Shown piece after piece: positions 5,056-58,530 of a stretch of DNA of 64,000 bases. Positions within the stretch are counted from its first letter, which is position 1. The number at the start of each line of letters is the position of its first letter. The translations under genes were made by a program, and so were the position numbers. The stretch comes from Bacilli bacterium (GTDB taxonomy: Bacteria > Bacillota_I > Bacilli_A > RF39 > UBA660). The stretch spans positions 36,945 to 100,944 of the forward strand of contig JAFZKH010000009.1 in the NCBI GenBank assembly GCA_017553685.1, in the 5' to 3' direction. The notes beneath the pieces were generated by a model. That model saw only the letters and a list, made by a program, of their open reading frames with translations. It was not told the DNA's origin and did not search any database.

Positions 5056-6703
5056 TCTTTTCCCCTGATTTTTTAAATATTTTTTTAATTTTACCCAATA
5101 ATTCTTTAGCAATTACTGTTTTAAATAATGGTTTATATGTAAATATAAAGTATACTATCATACCTACTACTGCATATATAGCTATTATTATAATTGCATT
5201 ACTTCTAGATGTTGGAACTATATCTATAAACATTCTTAGGATAAATAAACTTGCAAGCATAGCACCAGATCCAAATAATATCCAGAATAATCCTTTAAAT
5301 GTATCCTTCATACTTATTTTCATTTTCTTAATCATATAAATAATTGAAATAATATATGTTGATGAAAGTGATATAAGAGTACCAGATATAGTACCTACAT
5401 ATGGAGGTAATCCTAGTTTATATGCTCCAACCATAAGTGGATATTGTAATCCTGCTTTTAATATAAGTTCTACTATTAAAGCTATAAATACTATTTTATA
5501 TTTATTAACAGATTGCATTATTATAAGTGTGATAGTATATAAAGAAGATGCTATAGCAGCAAATATAAATATACTAAACACTGAAGCAGCAAGTCCATGA
5601 TTTTGGTAGAATACTTCCCAAACTGGTTTTGCTAAAAATGATAATCCAATAGTCATTGGAACACCAAAATATAATAATATTGTATATGCTTCATTAACTC
5701 TTTTTCTAACTGAATCCATATCATTTTTAACATAACTAGATGTTATATGTGGAAGTAAACTAGTAACTAATCCTGTAGCTATTGCAATAATAATTTGGTT
5801 TAATTTAACACCCCAAGTAGTTAATACTCCCATAACAGTTTCAGCTTTGGTGATTGTATAACCTGTATAATTAACGAGTATCTTAACTACTGTAAACATA
5901 TTTATTAATGCACATGCATTACCTACTGCATCTATTAATATAAATGGAACAGCATATTTAATAATCTTTAACCATATTTCTTTTGTAGAAATATTTTTTT
6001 CTTCGTCTTTTGGTTTTTGATTAACTAAGAATATATCTTTATTAGTTTTAATCTTAATTAATAAATAAAATAATGCAAATAAACCACCAATAGTAGCACC
6101 AAAACAAGCGACAGCTACAGATGTTCTAACATCATGAGATAATTTCATAGCAAAATAACTACCAAATACTACTATGGCTACTCTAAATAATTGTTCTACT
6201 ACTTGGCTAAGTGATGACTCAGTCATATATTTATTACCTTGTAAGTATCCTCTTGATACTGATAATGGAGGAATAACAAGTATAGCTGTAGCAATAACTC
6301 TAATAACATATACTATATCTTCAATAGTATTTCCACCTTCAATATCTCCAATTATCATTTTTGCAATTGGTTCTGCAAATATAAATAATAAAGCAAATAT
6401 AACAACAGCAAAAGCCATTATTACTCTTCTACCTTGTTTATAAACTCTTTCTCTTGTATGGTAATAACCAAGTGCATTGTATTCACTAACAAGTTTTGAT
6501 ATAGCAAGCGGAATACCTACAGTAGATATAGATAAGAAAGTAGCATATATAGTATATGCATAACCATATAATGCTCCTCCTTGTTCTCCTATTACTTTAT
6601 AAAATGGTACTACATAAATAATACCTATAATTTTAGTTAAAATAATCGCAAAAGTTGCTATAAAGGCTCCTTGTTTAAAGGAACTTTTTTTCATTTTTCC
6701 CAT
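5039..6703 (-). CDS. murJ: MurJ/YtgP-type lipid II flippase (polysaccharide biosynthesis family)
   Basis: ~14 TMs, GIPLAISKLVSEY, RGYLQG, SQVVEQLFR. Confidence 0.8.
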   Translation of the reverse strand: MGKMKKSSFKQGAFIATFAIILTKIIGIIYVVPFYKVIGEQGGALYGYAYTIYATFLSISTVGIPLAISKLVSEYNALGYYHTRERVYKQGRRVIMAFAVVIFALLFIFAEPIAKMIIGDIEGGNTIEDIVYVIRVIATAILVIPPLSVSRGYLQGNKYMTESSLSQVVEQLFRVAIVVFGSYFAMKLSHDVRTSVAVACFGATIGGLFALFYLLIKIKTNKDIFLVNQKPKDEEKNISTKEIWLKIIKYAVPFILIDAVGNACALINMFTVVKILVNYTGYTITKAETVMGVLTTWGVKLNQIIIAIATGLVTSLLPHITSSYVKNDMDSVRKRVNEAYTILLYFGVPMTIGLSFLAKPVWEVFYQNHGLAASVFSIFIFAAIASSLYTITLIIMQSVNKYKIVFIALIVELILKAGLQYPLMVGAYKLGLPPYVGTISGTLISLSSTYIISIIYMIKKMKISMKDTFKGLFWILFGSGAMLASLFILRMFIDIVPTSRSNAIIIIAIYAVVGMIVYFIFTYKPLFKTVIAKELLGKIKKIFKKSGEKNEIKK

Positions 6704-27144: not shown

Positions 27145-27345
27145 AAAACGGAAAAAATACCTACGATGTAGGGACTAATAATAGCGGTACCACCCTACTT
27201 CATAGATATTTCTATGCTCTTTTTAGTTATAACGCTCTCCTAGCGAATAAACTCCAAAGTTTCTTCAAATAAATATCTTAACTTATTTTCACCAACCATA
27301 AGTTCTCTACATAAGTATTTATTTTACTCTTCTTCTTCCTCGTTT
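27145..27345 (-). promoter_or_regulatory. T-box riboswitch upstream of gltX
   Basis: AGAGA/GGTGAAA motifs, GAA-GAA-A bulge (Glu specifier candidate), AGTAGGGTGGTACCGC, terminator. Confidence 0.9.
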
Positions 27346-27367
27346 TTATACATGTATTTTAACATAG

Positions 27368-40632: not shown

Positions 40633-41331
40633 ATGAAAAAGTATAAAGATTTGTTTATAGCACTTTTAACATTCTTATTATATTTTTTATTTAGTCCATT
40701 AATTGAAGAAATACTTCATTTATTTAATATAAATATTAAGAATTTAAATATAATTCCATTAAATATAATTTTAATAGTAGTAGATTTATCATTTATGGGA
40801 ATAGTATTCTTAATACATAAGAATGAAATAATAAAAGATTTTAAAGAGTTTATAGGTAATAAAGGTAAATGGTTCTTTAAATATATAGGATTATTTATAG
40901 GTTCAGTAGTTGTTATGGGAGCACTTAATCTAATACTATCTAAAATAACTAATATGAGTTCTAGTGAAAATGAAGAACTAGTTAGAGAGTTAATTAAAAA
41001 GTTCCCTGTTTATATGGCTGTGTCTACAATTTTATATGCGCCTTTTGTAGAAGAAATACTATTTAGAAAATGTGTTAGAAAAATAATACCTGGTAATGAT
41101 AAATTAGTTAAAATAGCATATATTTTAATTAGTGCAATTATATTTGGTTTAGTACATGTTATATCACTAGATGCTACATTTAATGACTTTTTAATGGGTA
41201 TACCATATATGGTTGTAGGTTTATCTCTTGGTTATATATATATTAAAACTGATAATGTATTTGCTACTATGCAATTTCATTTAATGCATAATACTATATT
41301 ACTTATATTACAGTTAGTAATGAGAGGTTAA
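40633..41331 (+). CDS. CPBP (CAAX/Abi) intramembrane metalloprotease
   Basis: EEILFR, FGLVH, HLMHN. Confidence 0.92.
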   Translation: MKKYKDLFIALLTFLLYFLFSPLIEEILHLFNINIKNLNIIPLNIILIVVDLSFMGIVFLIHKNEIIKDFKEFIGNKGKWFFKYIGLFIGSVVVMGALNLILSKITNMSSSENEELVRELIKKFPVYMAVSTILYAPFVEEILFRKCVRKIIPGNDKLVKIAYILISAIIFGLVHVISLDATFNDFLMGIPYMVVGLSLGYIYIKTDNVFATMQFHLMHNTILLILQLVMRG

Positions 41332-41332
41332 T

Positions 41333-42190
41333 ATGAAAAAAAGAATAGAAGAAGATTTAGAAGAGAAAAAGAGTCATAAACTTAGAATATTTATTTTTAT
41401 ACTTATAGCTATTATTTCATTTATTATTGTTTATGGTAGATTTATAGAACCTAGTTTTATGTTAGTAAATGAAATAAATATAGAAGATAATAATCTTAAT
41501 AAATCATTTGGTACTTTAAAAATAGTACATTTTACAGATATATTATATGGAAGTACTACTGATATAGAAACTATTAAAAAAATAGTTAATACTATTAATG
41601 ATAAAAAAGGAGATATAGTTATATATACTGGAGACCTAGTATATGAAGATACTTCTTTAGATGAGAAAGCTATTAATGAAATAGAAGAAGAATTATCTAA
41701 AATAAAAGCTAAGTATGTTAAATATTATGTTAGTGGTGATAATGATTCTAAGTTTGCTAGTTATGATACTTTAATGGCTAATGCAGGATTTGTATCATTA
41801 AATGATGATTATAAAATACTATATAATGAAGAAGCAGATTCTATATTAATTAGTGGTATTAAATATAACTCTAAATTAACATTCTTAGATGATATTCATT
41901 ATGATGGGTTTAAGATTAATATAATGCATACTCCAGATACAATGGATAAGATAGATCATTTAAACTATAATTATGTGTTTGCAGGGCATTCTTTATATAA
42001 CCAAATAAATATACCTGGAATAGATAAATTACTTCTTAAAAAGGGTTCTAATATGTATTATAAGAGTCATTATAAGACTAATGATACTAATCTATATATA
42101 AGTAATGGATTTGGTTCTGATACATTTAAATTTAGACTTAATAGTATTCCATCTATTAATGTATATAAAATTAAAAATACATCTAAATGA
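41333..42190 (+). CDS. Membrane-anchored metallophosphoesterase (YkuE-like, divergent)
   Basis: HFTD, YTGDL, GDND, MHTPD, AGHS. Confidence 0.88.
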   Translation: MKKRIEEDLEEKKSHKLRIFIFILIAIISFIIVYGRFIEPSFMLVNEINIEDNNLNKSFGTLKIVHFTDILYGSTTDIETIKKIVNTINDKKGDIVIYTGDLVYEDTSLDEKAINEIEEELSKIKAKYVKYYVSGDNDSKFASYDTLMANAGFVSLNDDYKILYNEEADSILISGIKYNSKLTFLDDIHYDGFKINIMHTPDTMDKIDHLNYNYVFAGHSLYNQINIPGIDKLLLKKGSNMYYKSHYKTNDTNLYISNGFGSDTFKFRLNSIPSINVYKIKNTSK

Positions 42191-42199
42191 TGTATTTTT
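42173..42199. terminator. Bidirectional terminator (copy 1)
   Basis: aaaaatacatc-taaat-gatgtattttt. Confidence 0.8.
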
Positions 42200-42226
42200 T
42201 GTTATAATTATATTAGAGGTAATAAT

Positions 42227-43240
42227 ATGAAAAAATATATAATTGGAATTATGTTTTGTTTAGTTCACTTCATACTAGAAGTAACTTGTTTTTATACATT
42301 AGCAGCTTATACAAGTAGTAATTTATTTCCAATAATAGCTTTAATGTATGATTTATTTGCTTTTGTTCCACAAGGTTTAATCGGAGCATTTAGTGACAAA
42401 TTTAGAAAAGTACATATAGGTATTATTGGTTTAGTTTTAACTTTATTTGCTCTTATAAGTTTAAAGTTTAATTTACCAGTATATGTAATATTTACATTAC
42501 TTACTATTGGTAATGCATTAGTACATGTAGAAGGAGCAGAAAGTACACTTAGAACTTCTGAAGGAAAAATGTTTCCGAGTGCTCTATTTGTAGCAGGAGG
42601 AGCCTTTGGTATTATTACAGGTAAATTATTATTTCAAAATAATATAAGTGTAGAGTTTATTATGCTTGCAAATGTAATTGCTTTATTAATAGCAATAATT
42701 GCATATAGATTTAGAAAAGATGAAGATAATAAATTAGAAGAATATAACTATGATAATACTAAAATTAATACTGCTATACTAATAATACTTGCAGTATTTG
42801 TAGTAGCAGTTAGATCATATTCTAGTTATGGTATACCTACAGGATGGAATAAGACTACTCTTCAAACAATATTATTATTCTGTTTTATGGGTATAGGTAA
42901 AGCTTTAGGAGGTCTATTAATAGATAAAACAAATATTAAAGTTACATCTATTGTAAGTACTGTTTTAGCTCTACCTTTCCTATTATTTGGTAATCATAAT
43001 ATGTATCTATCATTAATTGGAATAATGTTATTTAGTATGACTATGCCAGTAACATTAGCAATATTAGTTTCTAGATTAAAAAAGAGTCCTGGTATAGCAT
43101 TTGGATTAACTACTATAGGACTATTTATAGGTTGTTTACCTGCTTTCTTATTTACAATTGATTCACTGCTTATAAATGGTATAGTATTTACTATTCTTAC
43201 AATTCTTTGTACAATAATATTAGTAAAGATAGAAAAATAA
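42227..43240 (+). CDS. MFS-like multi-pass membrane protein
   Basis: ~11-12 TMs, GAFSDKF and GLLIDKT loop motifs. Confidence 0.7.
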   Translation: MKKYIIGIMFCLVHFILEVTCFYTLAAYTSSNLFPIIALMYDLFAFVPQGLIGAFSDKFRKVHIGIIGLVLTLFALISLKFNLPVYVIFTLLTIGNALVHVEGAESTLRTSEGKMFPSALFVAGGAFGIITGKLLFQNNISVEFIMLANVIALLIAIIAYRFRKDEDNKLEEYNYDNTKINTAILIILAVFVVAVRSYSSYGIPTGWNKTTLQTILLFCFMGIGKALGGLLIDKTNIKVTSIVSTVLALPFLLFGNHNMYLSLIGIMLFSMTMPVTLAILVSRLKKSPGIAFGLTTIGLFIGCLPAFLFTIDSLLINGIVFTILTILCTIILVKIEK

Positions 43241-43252
43241 GGAGGTATATAT

Positions 43253-43420
43253 ATGTTTAGATTTTTAGATGTTATTGACCCAGATTTTCCAAGAAATACA
43301 CCTACTGTTAATAATGGGGATCCTAAAACATTAATTATTATAATTACATCTGTGGTTGTAGTTTTAGTAATTGCAGTTTTAGTTACATTACTAATTAGAA
43401 AAAATATTAAAAAGAAATAG
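43253..43420 (+). CDS. 55-aa single-pass membrane peptide 1
   Basis: Hand-translated MFRFLDVIDPDFPRNTPTVNNGDPKTLIIIITSVVVVLVIAVLVTLLIRKNIKKK, RBS GGAGGT. Confidence 0.85.
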   Translation: MFRFLDVIDPDFPRNTPTVNNGDPKTLIIIITSVVVVLVIAVLVTLLIRKNIKKK

Positions 43421-43429
43421 GAGGATAAT

Positions 43430-43555
43430 ATGTTTTTAGATATAGCAAGACCATCTGATACTCCTACTACTTTAGCTATTATAATAGCTGTTGCAATAGT
43501 ATTAGTAATAGGAGCATTAGTAACTCTAATCATAAAATTAAAACATGCTAAATAG
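43430..43555 (+). CDS. 41-aa single-pass membrane peptide 2
   Basis: Hand-translated MFLDIARPSDTPTTLAIIIAVAIVLVIGALVTLIIKLKHAK, RBS GGAGG, stop overlaps the next start. Confidence 0.85.
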   Translation: MFLDIARPSDTPTTLAIIIAVAIVLVIGALVTLIIKLKHAK

Positions 43556-43895
43556 TATATTACAAAGTTTATTATTAACTTTATTAATTGAATTATTTAT
43601 ATCTTTAGTACTAGGTATAAGAGGAAAAGATTTACTAAGAATAACACTTATAAATATATTAACTAATGTACCATTAAATATATTAGTTAGTTTATTATAT
43701 ACTGTTATAGATAATAATATTGTCTTTTATGTAATAGTACCTGTATTAGAAGTATTAATAGTATTAATTGAAGGAACATACTTTAAAAAACTTAATAAGA
43801 GTATTATAGGTCCATATAAATTATCTTTATTATTAAATGGATTTTCTTATAGTTTTTGTTTTGTATGTTTATTATTAGAAAAAATAATAAAATAA
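43545..43895 (+). CDS. 4-TM hypothetical membrane protein with repeated E...N motifs
   Basis: LTLLIE..LINILTNVPLN and EVLIVLIEG..LLNGFSY. Confidence 0.75.
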   Translation: MLNSILQSLLLTLLIELFISLVLGIRGKDLLRITLINILTNVPLNILVSLLYTVIDNNIVFYVIVPVLEVLIVLIEGTYFKKLNKSIIGPYKLSLLLNGFSYSFCFVCLLLEKIIK

Positions 43896-43920
43896 AAAAT
43901 ACATCGTTTGATGTATTTTT
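43895..43920. terminator. Bidirectional terminator (copy 2)
   Basis: aaaaatacatc-gttt-gatgtattttt. Confidence 0.8.
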
Positions 43921-44239
43921 ATTTTTTTAAATCATCTATATATTTTTCTAATGTTTTAGCATTAGGTCCAAGTATTATCTTTAATTGATTATCTATTTCT
44001 ACTATACCTTTAGCACCCATCTTTTGAATACCTTCTTTATTAACAATAGATACATCTCTTAAAGTTACTTTAAATCTAGACATATTAACTTCCATACTAA
44101 TAATATTGTCTTTTCCACCTAGATAATCTACTAACTTATTAGCTTCTACATGGAAATCTTTTTTAGTAGCTTTTAATACTATTAATAATATAAATATAAG
44201 TATAAAACCTATAATTAAATATTGCATCCAATATTGCAT
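43919..44239 (-). CDS. Stand-alone membrane-anchored PTS EIIB-like domain lacking the catalytic Cys
   Basis: LGGKDNI..NMSRFKV..GAKGIV..IILG. Confidence 0.8.
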   Translation of the reverse strand: MQYWMQYLIIGFILIFILLIVLKATKKDFHVEANKLVDYLGGKDNIISMEVNMSRFKVTLRDVSIVNKEGIQKMGAKGIVEIDNQLKIILGPNAKTLEKYIDDLKK

Positions 44240-44830: not shown

Positions 44831-44906
44831 TGGTGGACCCTAGGGGGTTCGAACTCCTGACCTTCTCGGTGCAAGCGAGATGCTCTACCAGCTGAGCTAA
44901 GGGCCC
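44831..44906 (-). tRNA. tRNA-Ala (TGC)
   Basis: G3:U70 acceptor pair, loop CTTGCAC, CCA end. Confidence 0.96.
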
Positions 44907-57546: not shown

Positions 57547-57622
57547 TGGTGGCTCCAGGTGGGATCGAACCACCGACACCAGGATTTTCAGTCCTGTGCT
57601 CTACCTACTGAGCTATAGAGCC
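57547..57622 (-). tRNA. tRNA-Phe (GAA)
   Basis: Loop CTGAAAA, CCA. Confidence 0.96.
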
Positions 57623-57633
57623 ACATAAAAAAA

Positions 57634-57709
57634 TGGCGGTTCCGAAGGGACTTGAACCCTCGATCTTCTGCGTGACAGGCAGACGTGTTAACCACTACAC
57701 CACGGAACC
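57634..57709 (-). tRNA. tRNA-Asp (GTC)
   Basis: Loop CTGTCAC, CCA. Confidence 0.96.
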
Positions 57710-57712
57710 AAT

Positions 57713-57789
57713 TGGTTGCGGGGGTTGGATTTGAACCAACGACCTTCGGGTTATGAGCCCGACGAGCTTCCAGACTGCTCCACCCCGCG
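57713..57789 (-). tRNA. Initiator tRNA-fMet (CAT)
   Basis: C1:A72 mismatch, GGG/CCC anticodon stem. Confidence 0.96.
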
Positions 57790-57809
57790 ATATAACAAAT
57801 AATTTTAAA

Positions 57810-57902
57810 TGGCGGAGAAGAAGGGATTCGAACCCCTGCGCCGGTTACCCGACCTCCCGGTTTTCAAGACCGGTCCCTTCAGCCAGACTTGGGTACTTCT
57901 CC
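57810..57902 (-). tRNA. tRNA-Ser (TGA)
   Basis: Long variable arm, loop CTTGAAA. Confidence 0.95.
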
Positions 57903-57906
57903 ACAG

Positions 57907-57995
57907 TGGTGCTTCAGGCCGGACTTGAACCGGCACGTGATTTGACTCACGCAGGATTTTAAGTCCTGTGCGTCTACCAATTCCGCCACTAAAGC
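57907..57995 (-). tRNA. tRNA-Leu (TAA)
   Basis: Long variable arm, loop CTTAAAA. Confidence 0.95.
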
Positions 57996-58111
57996 ACGTG
58001 TGCCAATTTGCTTGGACTTCTTAATTGTAATATATTTTTGTTTATTTTGCAATACTTTTTTTACAATTTTAACAACAAAAAAACTAGGTAAAACCTAGTA
58101 TTTTTTTAAAA

Positions 58112-58187
58112 TGGTGTCTCGTATGCGACTTGAACGCATGACCCCTTGATTAAAAGTCAAGTGCTCTACCGACTGAGCTAACGAGAC
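58112..58187 (-). tRNA. tRNA-Lys (TTT)
   Basis: Loop CTTTTAA. Confidence 0.96.
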
Positions 58188-58202
58188 ATATAACAAAAAC
58201 AT

Positions 58203-58277
58203 TGGCTGCCTTGGGTAGATTCGAACTACCGCATGTCAGAGTCAAAGTCTGATGCCTTACCACTTGGCTACAAGGCA
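58203..58277 (-). tRNA. tRNA-Gln (TTG)
   Basis: Loop CTTTGAC. Confidence 0.95.
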
Positions 58278-58282
58278 ATCCA

Positions 58283-58366
58283 TGGTGGGAAGAGGTGGAT
58301 TCGAACCACCGAACCCGAAGGAGCAGATTTACAGTCTGCCGCGTTTAGCCACTTCGCTATCTTCCC
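58283..58366 (-). tRNA. tRNA-Tyr (GTA)
   Basis: Loop CTGTAAA, variable arm. Confidence 0.96.
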
Positions 58367-58374
58367 ATAAAAAA

Positions 58375-58450
<76 letters not shown>

Positions 58451-58453
58451 ACA

Positions 58454-58530
58454 TGGTGGACTCTGAGGGACTCGAACCTTCGACCTCCTGCTTGTAAGGC
58501 AGATGCTCTAACCAACTGAGCTAAGAATCC
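58454..58530 (-). tRNA. tRNA-Val (TAC)
   Basis: Loop CTTACAA. Confidence 0.96.

Follow-up and report, generated by a model that had tools for sequence, protein, structure and literature searches.

Two tagged micropeptides in a Bacilli genome are predicted partners of an undescribed transporter-like membrane cassette

Results

Two micropeptide genes lie between genes for two polytopic membrane proteins

The 64,000-nucleotide stretch of a Bacilli bacterium genome analysed here (contig JAFZKH010000009.1, positions 36,945 to 100,944; hereafter the window) contains two short open reading frames (ORFs), encoding micropeptides of 55 and 41 amino acids (aa), between genes for two orphan membrane proteins on the forward strand. 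The upstream gene (42227..43240) encodes a 337-aa protein with 12 transmembrane (TM) helices, to which structure prediction with AlphaFold2 (AF2) and Foldseek comparison assign the fold of the major facilitator superfamily (MFS). It is followed by micropeptide 1 (43253..43420; 55 aa, MFRFLDVIDPDFPRNTPTVNNGDPKTLIIIITSVVVVLVIAVLVTLLIRKNIKKK), micropeptide 2 (43430..43555; 41 aa, MFLDIARPSDTPTTLAIIIAVAIVLVIGALVTLIIKLKHAK) and the gene for a 116-aa protein with four TM helices (4-TM protein; 43545..43895), which was recognised from its conservation across loci and an AF2 model. The positions of both micropeptides in the ORF list of the window agree exactly with those given in the initial annotation of this DNA. 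Each micropeptide gene has a canonical Shine-Dalgarno sequence, AGGAGG, overlapping with the stop codon of the gene before it: for micropeptide 1 this site (43240..43245) overlaps the MFS stop codon and stands 7 nt before the ATG, while for micropeptide 2 (43419..43424) it overlaps the micropeptide 1 stop codon with a spacing of 5 nt. The 4-TM gene starts 11 nt inside the end of micropeptide 2, and this overlap indicates that its translation is coupled to that of the micropeptide.

The two micropeptides have a common plan, consisting of F-L-D-[V/I]-x-x-P, a Pro/Thr-rich linker, a 21-22-residue hydrophobic helix ending in LVTL[L/I]I and a Lys-rich tail. In micropeptide 1 the N-terminal motif, hereafter the tag, is F4-L-D-V-I-D-P10 (43262-43282), followed by a 16-residue Pro/Thr/Asn linker, the TM helix L27-I48 (43331-43396) and the basic tail RKNIKKK (43397-43417). 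In micropeptide 2 the tag F2-L-D-I-A-R-P8 (43433-43453) is followed by a 6-residue linker, the TM helix L15-I35 (43472-43534) and the tail KLKHAK (43535-43552). An alignment over 46 residues gives them 48% identity (E 1e-6). Of the window's 245 ORFs of 30 aa or more, no others have both the motif and a hydrophobic segment at the C-terminus. From the positive-inside rule, both are predicted to be single-pass membrane proteins with the N-terminus outside and the C-terminus inside the cell. Pfam and NCBIfam gave only sub-threshold, TM-driven matches for the two (Syndecan, EssA, FliL, PEFG-CTERM), and a PADLOC scan gave no match. That the ORFs were unannotated, as had been claimed, is true only of the ORF track from which the initial annotation was made: the exact sequences of both are present in public protein collections, and GenBank contains close homologues under the name 'hypothetical protein' (MBR4350824.1, MBR2603851.1, MBR2603852.1 and MBP3840488.1).

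Both micropeptides evolve as protein-coding genes

In the three nearest genomes (loci L001-L003, with MFS proteins 91-77% identical) both paralogues are present as separate genes, and the orthologues of micropeptide 2 are 39-41 aa long. Ratios of nonsynonymous to synonymous substitution rates (dN/dS; Nei-Gojobori), calculated against L001 and L002 at dS values of 0.33-0.47, were 0.13-0.25 for micropeptide 1 and 0.30-0.45 for micropeptide 2. These values are comparable to those of the flanking genes (0.12-0.17) and indicate purifying selection on both micropeptides. A search with a profile of 15 such peptides added 41 clusters (39-67 aa), every one of which starts with x-[F/L]-L-D-..-P and ends with a TM helix and a run of Lys. 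Reading frame, motif and length are thus kept across dozens of species, and the paralogous, single-pass and protein-coding nature that had been ascribed to the two ORFs stands. We consider both to be almost certainly real genes.

The number of micropeptide copies per cassette ranges from 1 to 3 and turns over. L003 (5023-5463) holds three intact paralogues, and L001 contains between its two peptides a 31-aa TM-only ORF (5203-5298) without tag or basic tail that looks like a decaying third copy. On the opposite strand, a 179-aa ORF (42994-43533) covers the end of the MFS gene and both micropeptides. It was rejected as a gene, because it mirrors the real genes; equivalent antisense ORFs cluster across loci for the same reason, as an artefact of AT-rich coding sequence.

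The gene order is conserved in gut and rumen bacteria

With a peptide pattern for the loop between TM7 and TM8 of the MFS-fold protein we retrieved 80 loci from as many species (L001-L080). A small single-pass protein is encoded directly after the MFS gene, in what we call the slot, in 75 of the 77 scorable loci, and in 68 of these 75 its start lies within 15 nt of the MFS gene or overlaps it. A homologue of the 4-TM protein follows in 72 of 81 loci, most of the others being truncated contigs. When all neighbouring ORFs were clustered, only three families proved to be conserved, those of the MFS protein and of the 4-TM protein and, in 34 loci, one of secreted SH3b proteins. Retrieval in the reverse direction, in which contigs were fetched from micropeptide matches, showed the same gene order. 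By sequence, these comparisons define a cassette in which the gene for an orphan 12-TM protein of the MFS fold comes first, one to three genes for small bitopic proteins come next and the gene for an orphan 4-TM protein comes last; the micropeptides of the window are very probably tied to this cassette in function. Its obligatory polytopic members, which are the key to the setting of the micropeptides, had not been considered in the initial annotation. A full-text literature search for small-protein/MFS partnerships of this kind found nothing relevant, and the cassette appears to be undescribed, for which a literature search of this sort is weak evidence.

The hosts of the cassette are uncultured Bacilli, Erysipelotrichaceae, Ruminococcus and other Clostridia, Lachnospiraceae and several Saccharibacteria, the nearest relatives of the window organism, itself an uncultured, low-GC member of the Bacilli from rumen or gut, being 'Bacilli bacterium' metagenome-assembled genomes (MAGs) from sheep rumen. 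The whole cassette is found in MAGs of Saccharibacteria/Nanosyncoccus, which belong to the candidate phyla radiation (CPR; L019, L022, L032, L033, L048, L057 and L069), and the MFS proteins of Saccharibacteria are 45-53% identical to those of Bacilli and Clostridia. This distribution suggests horizontal transfer of the cassette among rumen and gut lineages, mis-binning being another possibility. An origin from mobile elements was rejected, as tblastn searches of plasmid and phage collections gave no match.

The tag recurs on proteins of very different size

Across the retrieved loci the FLD..P motif generalises to [F/L]-[L/A]-D-h-x-x-P. The combination of D-h-x-x-P near the N-terminus with a C-terminal TM helix and a basic tail was found in 81 proteins from 58 of 77 loci; of the other loci, most show variants of the motif (FLDEPVEP, ILDWYGG, FADVPYSP, ADGAPxY) or are cut short. 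By comparison, the loose motif occurred in 3.1% (20/646) of unrelated control ORFs from related loci. The residue before the tag Asp is A or L in 81/81 tagged proteins.

The tagged proteins occur in two forms. In the leaderless forms 3-15 residues separate the tag from the initiator Met. The smallest are 39-aa micropeptides, in the clade of the window and in other Bacilli; at the upper end are Ruminococcus proteins of 60-285 aa, whose linkers are long, acidic and of low complexity. The other form, with about 34 members of 250-724 aa, starts with a classical Sec signal peptide that leads into the tag as [V/A]-x-A, then D-M-G-A-P, with A at position -1 in 34/34 and V or A at -3 in 32/34. The only recognisable domains of these larger proteins are SH3_3, and they too end in a TM helix with a Lys-rich tail. 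The initial annotation had placed the motif of the micropeptides outside the cell on the basis of the positive-inside rule, and had proposed a search for it behind the signal peptides of larger proteins. In related genomes such a search is positive: D-x-x-x-P follows a Sec signal peptide in 34 cassette-encoded proteins, which are predicted to carry the tag at their mature N-terminus outside the cell. Since the signal peptide precedes the tag, the tag must act outside the membrane, and the Sec-dependent forms thereby provide an independent confirmation of the topology that had been deduced from the charge distribution. The motif behaves as a common tag on proteins of 39 to 724 aa. It is a shared N-terminal element of proteins that otherwise have only the anchor and the tail in common; at their C-terminal end they have only the K-[L/I]-[I/V]-N-K-K-like tail.

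The Ruminococcus-type tagged proteins (L008-L027, L041 and L050; for example L010 5290-6144 and L015 5048-5905) are leaderless. On the N-terminal side of their TM helix stands an acidic or Pro/Thr-rich linker of 90-130 residues, and the basic tail is followed by repeats rich in Q, N, P, G and Y, such as NNYPNQGGY.

A further group of slot peptides, which we term type B, has no tag. These are 41-55 aa long and end in K-E-[I/V]-K-K. Wherever the contig continues, cassettes with such a peptide encode a tagged protein downstream, except in L028 and L049. The TM helix and tail of type B and tagged peptides are similar (hhalign probability 86% with E 5e-6; reversed controls, 4-6%), whereas their N-terminal regions do not align by hhalign.

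Predicted structures of the two polytopic proteins

The AF2 models of both polytopic proteins were made as single chains. That of the 337-aa protein is compact, with 12 helices, a predicted local distance difference test score (pLDDT) of 86 and a predicted TM-score (pTM) of 0.85. A Foldseek search of the PDB matched it to the MFS transporters 6g9x (SfMCT), VMAT1/2, LmrP, NorA and OxlT (TM ~0.7, E ~1e-6, probability 1.00), and the model accordingly has the MFS arrangement of 12 TM helices in two six-helix bundles. Two cytoplasmic loops resemble MFS motif A when inspected by eye (G53xxxD57KFRK and G228GLLID233K). Invariant charged and polar residues on TM1, TM2, TM4 and TM7 (H14, E18, D42, H100, E105 and R196) are such as would be expected in a working carrier. 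The sole conserved extracellular loop, between TM7 and TM8, is the nearly invariant Y201-G-I-P-T-x-W-N-K-T. Profile searches gave little for this family. Pfam and NCBIfam had nothing above cut-off for the 337-aa protein or its relatives; the window protein did not reach the MFS_1 gathering score of Pfam, one of 18 relatives matched at E 3e-4, and precomputed matches were only 'faint'. A profile of the family found no match among PDB sequences. More than 1400 homologues exist, all of them hypothetical.

For the 4-TM protein AF2 predicted a four-helix bundle (pLDDT 82), and the positive-inside rule predicts that both its N- and its C-terminus are outside. Its invariant intramembrane residues (T12, E16, N41, E69, E76, N98 and S101) lie mostly in the cytoplasmic half of the membrane. 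The protein belongs to no Pfam or NCBIfam family, PADLOC scans of it and of the MFS-fold protein gave nothing above cut-off, the profile of the 4-TM family found no match among PDB sequences, and a Foldseek search with the model gave none better than E 1.8. Weak matches to FraC, a cyanobacterial filament-integrity protein, were obtained for 4 of 48 4-TM proteins with NCBIfam (best E 8e-5) and for two members of the 4-TM alignment with Pfam (best E 0.0027). They are unconfirmed and probably driven by TM composition, a very remote relationship being the alternative. An exhaustive search yielded 710 representative 4-TM clusters at 50% identity, nearly all of them stand-alone proteins of 105-125 aa.

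Three departures from this stand-alone form were found. In P0218 (L081 6001-7029) a solute-binding domain, PBP_like_2 (Pfam E 1.3e-9), extends the C-terminus, which is predicted to be outside. Because the collection has P0218 in identical form in 126 of its indexed blocks, we regard it as a common and real variant. In P0229 (L082 2830-3288) the N-terminus of the 4-TM protein itself bears a directly fused 'IFADEVLFEP' tag; if this fusion, which comes from a single 3.3-kb contig, is not an artefact of assembly or gene calling, it ties the tag physically to the module formed by the MFS-fold and 4-TM proteins. P0262 is a tandem duplication of the 4-TM protein. The cassette of L081 also encodes a second, diverged 4-TM paralogue and a 92-aa signal-peptide tagged protein (YADVIFGP).

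Genomic surroundings

Upstream of the cassette lie genes for a CPBP/Rce1-like intramembrane protease and an LpxG/YaeI-like metallophosphoesterase (40633..42190, forward strand), both recognised through Pfam and NCBIfam matches. In the window they are probably co-transcribed with the cassette, in an operon that spans 40633 to 43895 on the forward strand and has at its end an AT-rich hairpin with an adjoining T-run (43889-43928). By RNA folding this hairpin has a stability of -11 kcal/mol (z -4.4), which none of 200 shuffled sequences equalled. It is likely the terminator of the operon, and may be bidirectional; a terminator consensus scan missed it because that scan demands three G-C pairs. The initial annotation had read the motif as a possible sorting or modification tag, and a role in sorting is one that the upstream CPBP protease would fit. 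The analysis gave no sign of sorting or covalent modification. The synteny of the protease and metallophosphoesterase genes is conserved only in the three closest relatives, however, and for this reason we rejected both as members of the cassette.

Beyond the hairpin, on the reverse strand, a 106-aa protein (43919-44239) combines an N-terminal TM helix with a stand-alone enzyme IIB (EIIB) domain of the phosphotransferase system (PTS; Pfam E 8.6e-9), and no adjoining EIIC gene is visible in that stretch. Other features on the reverse strand are a single tRNA gene (44834-44906) that adjoins a CMP/dCMP-type deaminase gene, an array of 11 tRNA genes (57550-58530), and a T-box leader (27167-27349) located 5' of a 552-aa gene whose product has a class I aminoacyl-tRNA synthetase HIGH-type motif.

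Discussion

A model for the role of the micropeptides

From their sequences and gene context, the two micropeptides are predicted to be small membrane-protein partners of a transporter-like complex, which carry a new, shared N-terminal tag and belong to an undescribed and widespread cassette. They appear to be the smallest members of a bitopic family defined by an N-terminal tag, an ectodomain of 6 to ~500 residues, and a C-terminal TM helix with a Lys/Arg-rich tail. The best overall explanation, in which we have moderate confidence, is that the MFS/4-TM module has them as small subunits or partners, with their tag docking at the outer face of the membrane. According to this model the micropeptides would assemble with both polytopic proteins. 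Their TM helix and basic tail would pack against the 4-TM protein, which has its invariant cluster of Glu, Asn and Ser residues in the cytoplasmic membrane half; the similarity of TM helix and tail across the slot peptides and the position of the acidic 4-TM cluster near the cytoplasmic face suggest this pair as the membrane interface. The tag of the window's peptides, which stands 6-16 residues above the bilayer, would dock on the outer face of the module. This short distance and the P0229 fusion are the reasons why we let the tag work at the outer membrane surface. The most plausible dock would be the TM7-TM8 loop or an outward-open cavity of the MFS protein, although we put forward this specific docking picture more tentatively than the partnership itself. 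In other genomes the tag would tether cell-wall-binding SH3b proteins to the module, whereas in the genome of the window tag and anchor alone remain, and the peptides would be subunits with a structural or regulatory role in a transporter-like complex. The earlier idea of a tandem array of variable ligands is unlikely, because the gap between tag and membrane is short and the copy number is only 1-3.

Several observations weigh against this model. The conservation of the TM7-TM8 loop is inflated, as L001-L080 were retrieved with that very pattern; among the four loci that were found independently, the loop is kept in three and missing in L081. The dN/dS values of some pairs (L001-L002 and L002-L003) reach 0.5-0.96, on only 3-17 synonymous differences, which points to weak constraint on the linker and to its fast evolution. 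Finally, the leaderless N-tails of 90-130 acidic residues in Ruminococcus would be hard to translocate without a dedicated route, and could mean that the module acts on the tagged proteins rather than merely binding them.

Alternative explanations

That last possibility can be extended into an explanation in which the tag marks substrates. The module would then cleave before the Asp, covalently modify the tag or translocate leaderless N-tails, with the 4-TM protein as the catalytic or translocating component and the MFS protein supplying a substrate. The constant A or L before the Asp, which would become the mature N-terminus in the signal-peptide forms, speaks for this, as do the seven invariant polar residues within the membrane part of the 4-TM protein, which resemble an enzyme or ion site, and the need of the Ruminococcus tails for an export route; the one to three tagged proteins per cassette would resemble a client list. 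However, conservation of the 4-TM protein is just as strong in cassettes whose tagged protein is already exported by Sec and cut by signal peptidase, and the 4-TM protein is thus not simply a leader peptidase or translocase. In addition, the 'leader' of the window's peptides would be only 3-5 residues long, the 4-TM protein has no fold or family match to a known protease or transferase, and the conservation of a tag-less slot peptide fits a subunit better than a substrate. We regard a substrate tag as rather unlikely. Less probable still, in our judgement, is a secondary transporter that depends on a tethered receptor, in the manner of the tripartite ATP-independent periplasmic (TRAP) and tripartite tricarboxylate transporter (TTT) families. 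The receptor would dock by its Asp-containing tag, and the micropeptides of the window would be receptor-less stubs that keep the complex assembled. The architecture of a 12-TM, a 4-TM and an extracellular protein is in agreement with this, the widespread variant P0218 fuses the 4-TM protein to PBP_like_2, and tagged SH3b proteins could capture cell-wall fragments. Yet homology to DctQ/DctM or TctB/TctA is lacking, SH3b domains are binding modules rather than classical solute receptors, and the clade of the window and Ruminococcus keep the cassette without any globular ectodomain. Moreover, MFS carriers are not known to require a receptor.

Small hydrophobic tandem paralogues in one to three copies, adjoining a transporter and a small membrane protein, also bring to mind membrane-active peptides of the type I toxin or leaderless bacteriocin kind, for which the MFS protein would be the exporter and the 4-TM protein the immunity factor. 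Multi-peptide leaderless bacteriocin loci do look similar, with small hydrophobic peptides, a transporter and a small membrane protein. Against such a role, a uniformly hydrophobic anchor of 21-22 residues with a Lys tail is typical of stable insertion and not of amphipathic cationic helices, and the same tag and anchor frame SH3b proteins of 250-720 aa. The cassette is moreover present in very reduced genomes such as those of Saccharibacteria, no ABC exporter, immunity gene or antisense RNA partner is conserved among its neighbours, PADLOC found no match, and tblastn found no plasmid or phage copies. We consider this explanation very improbable. The probability that the two ORFs are chance, untranslated frames in AT-rich intergenic DNA seems close to negligible. 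Short ORFs are frequent in AT-rich genomes, and the antisense ORF covers the same region, but chance frames would not account for canonical Shine-Dalgarno sites, for frame, motif and length conserved across dozens of species, for dN/dS values below 1, or for the reciprocal retrieval of the cassette.

Relation to known membrane systems

Small single-pass subunits or regulators of transporters are known from KdpF of KdpFABC, AcrZ-AcrB, MgtS-MgtA/PitA and SgrT-PtsG. Like KdpF and AcrZ, the micropeptides are shorter than 60 aa (55 and 41), have one TM helix and presumably serve in the assembly or regulation of a polytopic partner; as for KdpF, they are encoded in the operon of a transporter-like partner and are translationally coupled. 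They differ from the KdpF/AcrZ type in that they have no sequence relationship to it, occur as one to three paralogues per cassette, and come with a second obligatory partner, the 4-TM protein. Furthermore, only the cassette peptides share an N-terminal extracellular tag with large Sec-exported SH3b proteins. With the TRAP (DctP/Q/M) and TTT (TctC/B/A) transporters the cassette has in common that a 12-TM protein and a small subunit of about four TM helices are encoded together, perhaps with an extracytoplasmic protein as the counterpart of the solute receptor. One variant fuses the 4-TM protein to a domain of the periplasmic binding protein (PBP) type, and the window itself has no such binding protein. 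Here, in contrast, the large subunit has the MFS fold and not that of DctM/TctA, the 4-TM protein has no similarity to DctQ/TctB in Pfam or NCBIfam, and the partners are TM-anchored SH3b proteins or bare micropeptides and not soluble or lipoprotein solute receptors.

The tag itself recalls the C-terminal sorting signals (LPXTG/sortase, PEP-CTERM/exosortase, and MYXO-, JDVT- and Synerg-CTERM with CPBP-type proteases), which likewise combine a short motif, a TM helix and a basic cluster on proteins of very different size that are co-encoded with polytopic membrane proteins. A further parallel is the CPBP protease gene two genes upstream in the window. Unlike those signals, the cassette signature is N-terminal, at a distance of 6 to ~500 residues from the TM helix. 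No sortase, exosortase or rhombosortase is present with the cassette, and the best NCBIfam scores of the window's CPBP protease against MrtJ/MrtS are far below the cut-offs. DltX is a single-pass peptide of ~45 aa from the D-alanylation (dlt) operon, which has a C-terminal motif and whose partners are an MBOAT protein, a carrier protein and DltD. It resembles the micropeptides as a conserved small peptide of a cell-envelope pathway, with a terminal motif on the outer face and a polytopic membrane protein encoded beside it, whereas its motif is C-terminal, the two are not homologous, and no MBOAT, carrier or DltD genes are found here. By analogy, the cassette would work most like the KdpF/AcrZ small subunits, resemble TRAP and TTT in architecture and sorting signals in its tag, and be a member of none of these classes. 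We place it outside them because of the lack of profile matches, the N-terminal position of the signature, the absence of a co-occurring sorting enzyme and the MFS fold of the large subunit.

Implications

Taken further, though as a conjecture that we advance with more reserve than the docking picture above, the cassette might represent an unrecognised 'tag-and-dock' system, in which the tag directs bitopic proteins, from a 39-aa micropeptide to SH3b proteins of more than 700 aa, to a module of an MFS-fold and a 4-TM protein. This would be a new class of receptor-tethered secondary transporters or envelope sensors, widespread among the Firmicutes of gut and rumen and present in Saccharibacteria too. 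If our interpretation is correct, it would supply a family of bacterial micropeptides, genes of a kind that usually goes unexplained, with a partner and a context that are concrete and open to testing. It would also delineate a conserved membrane cassette of three components, entirely uncharacterised so far and present in abundant lineages of gut and rumen, among which are genome-reduced Bacilli and episymbiotic Saccharibacteria. The tag would then be a new N-terminal recognition element, common to leaderless micropeptides and Sec-exported cell-wall-binding proteins, and a transporter-fold protein that recruits tethered extracellular partners by a terminal peptide would link the cell envelope to membrane transport or sensing in a new way.

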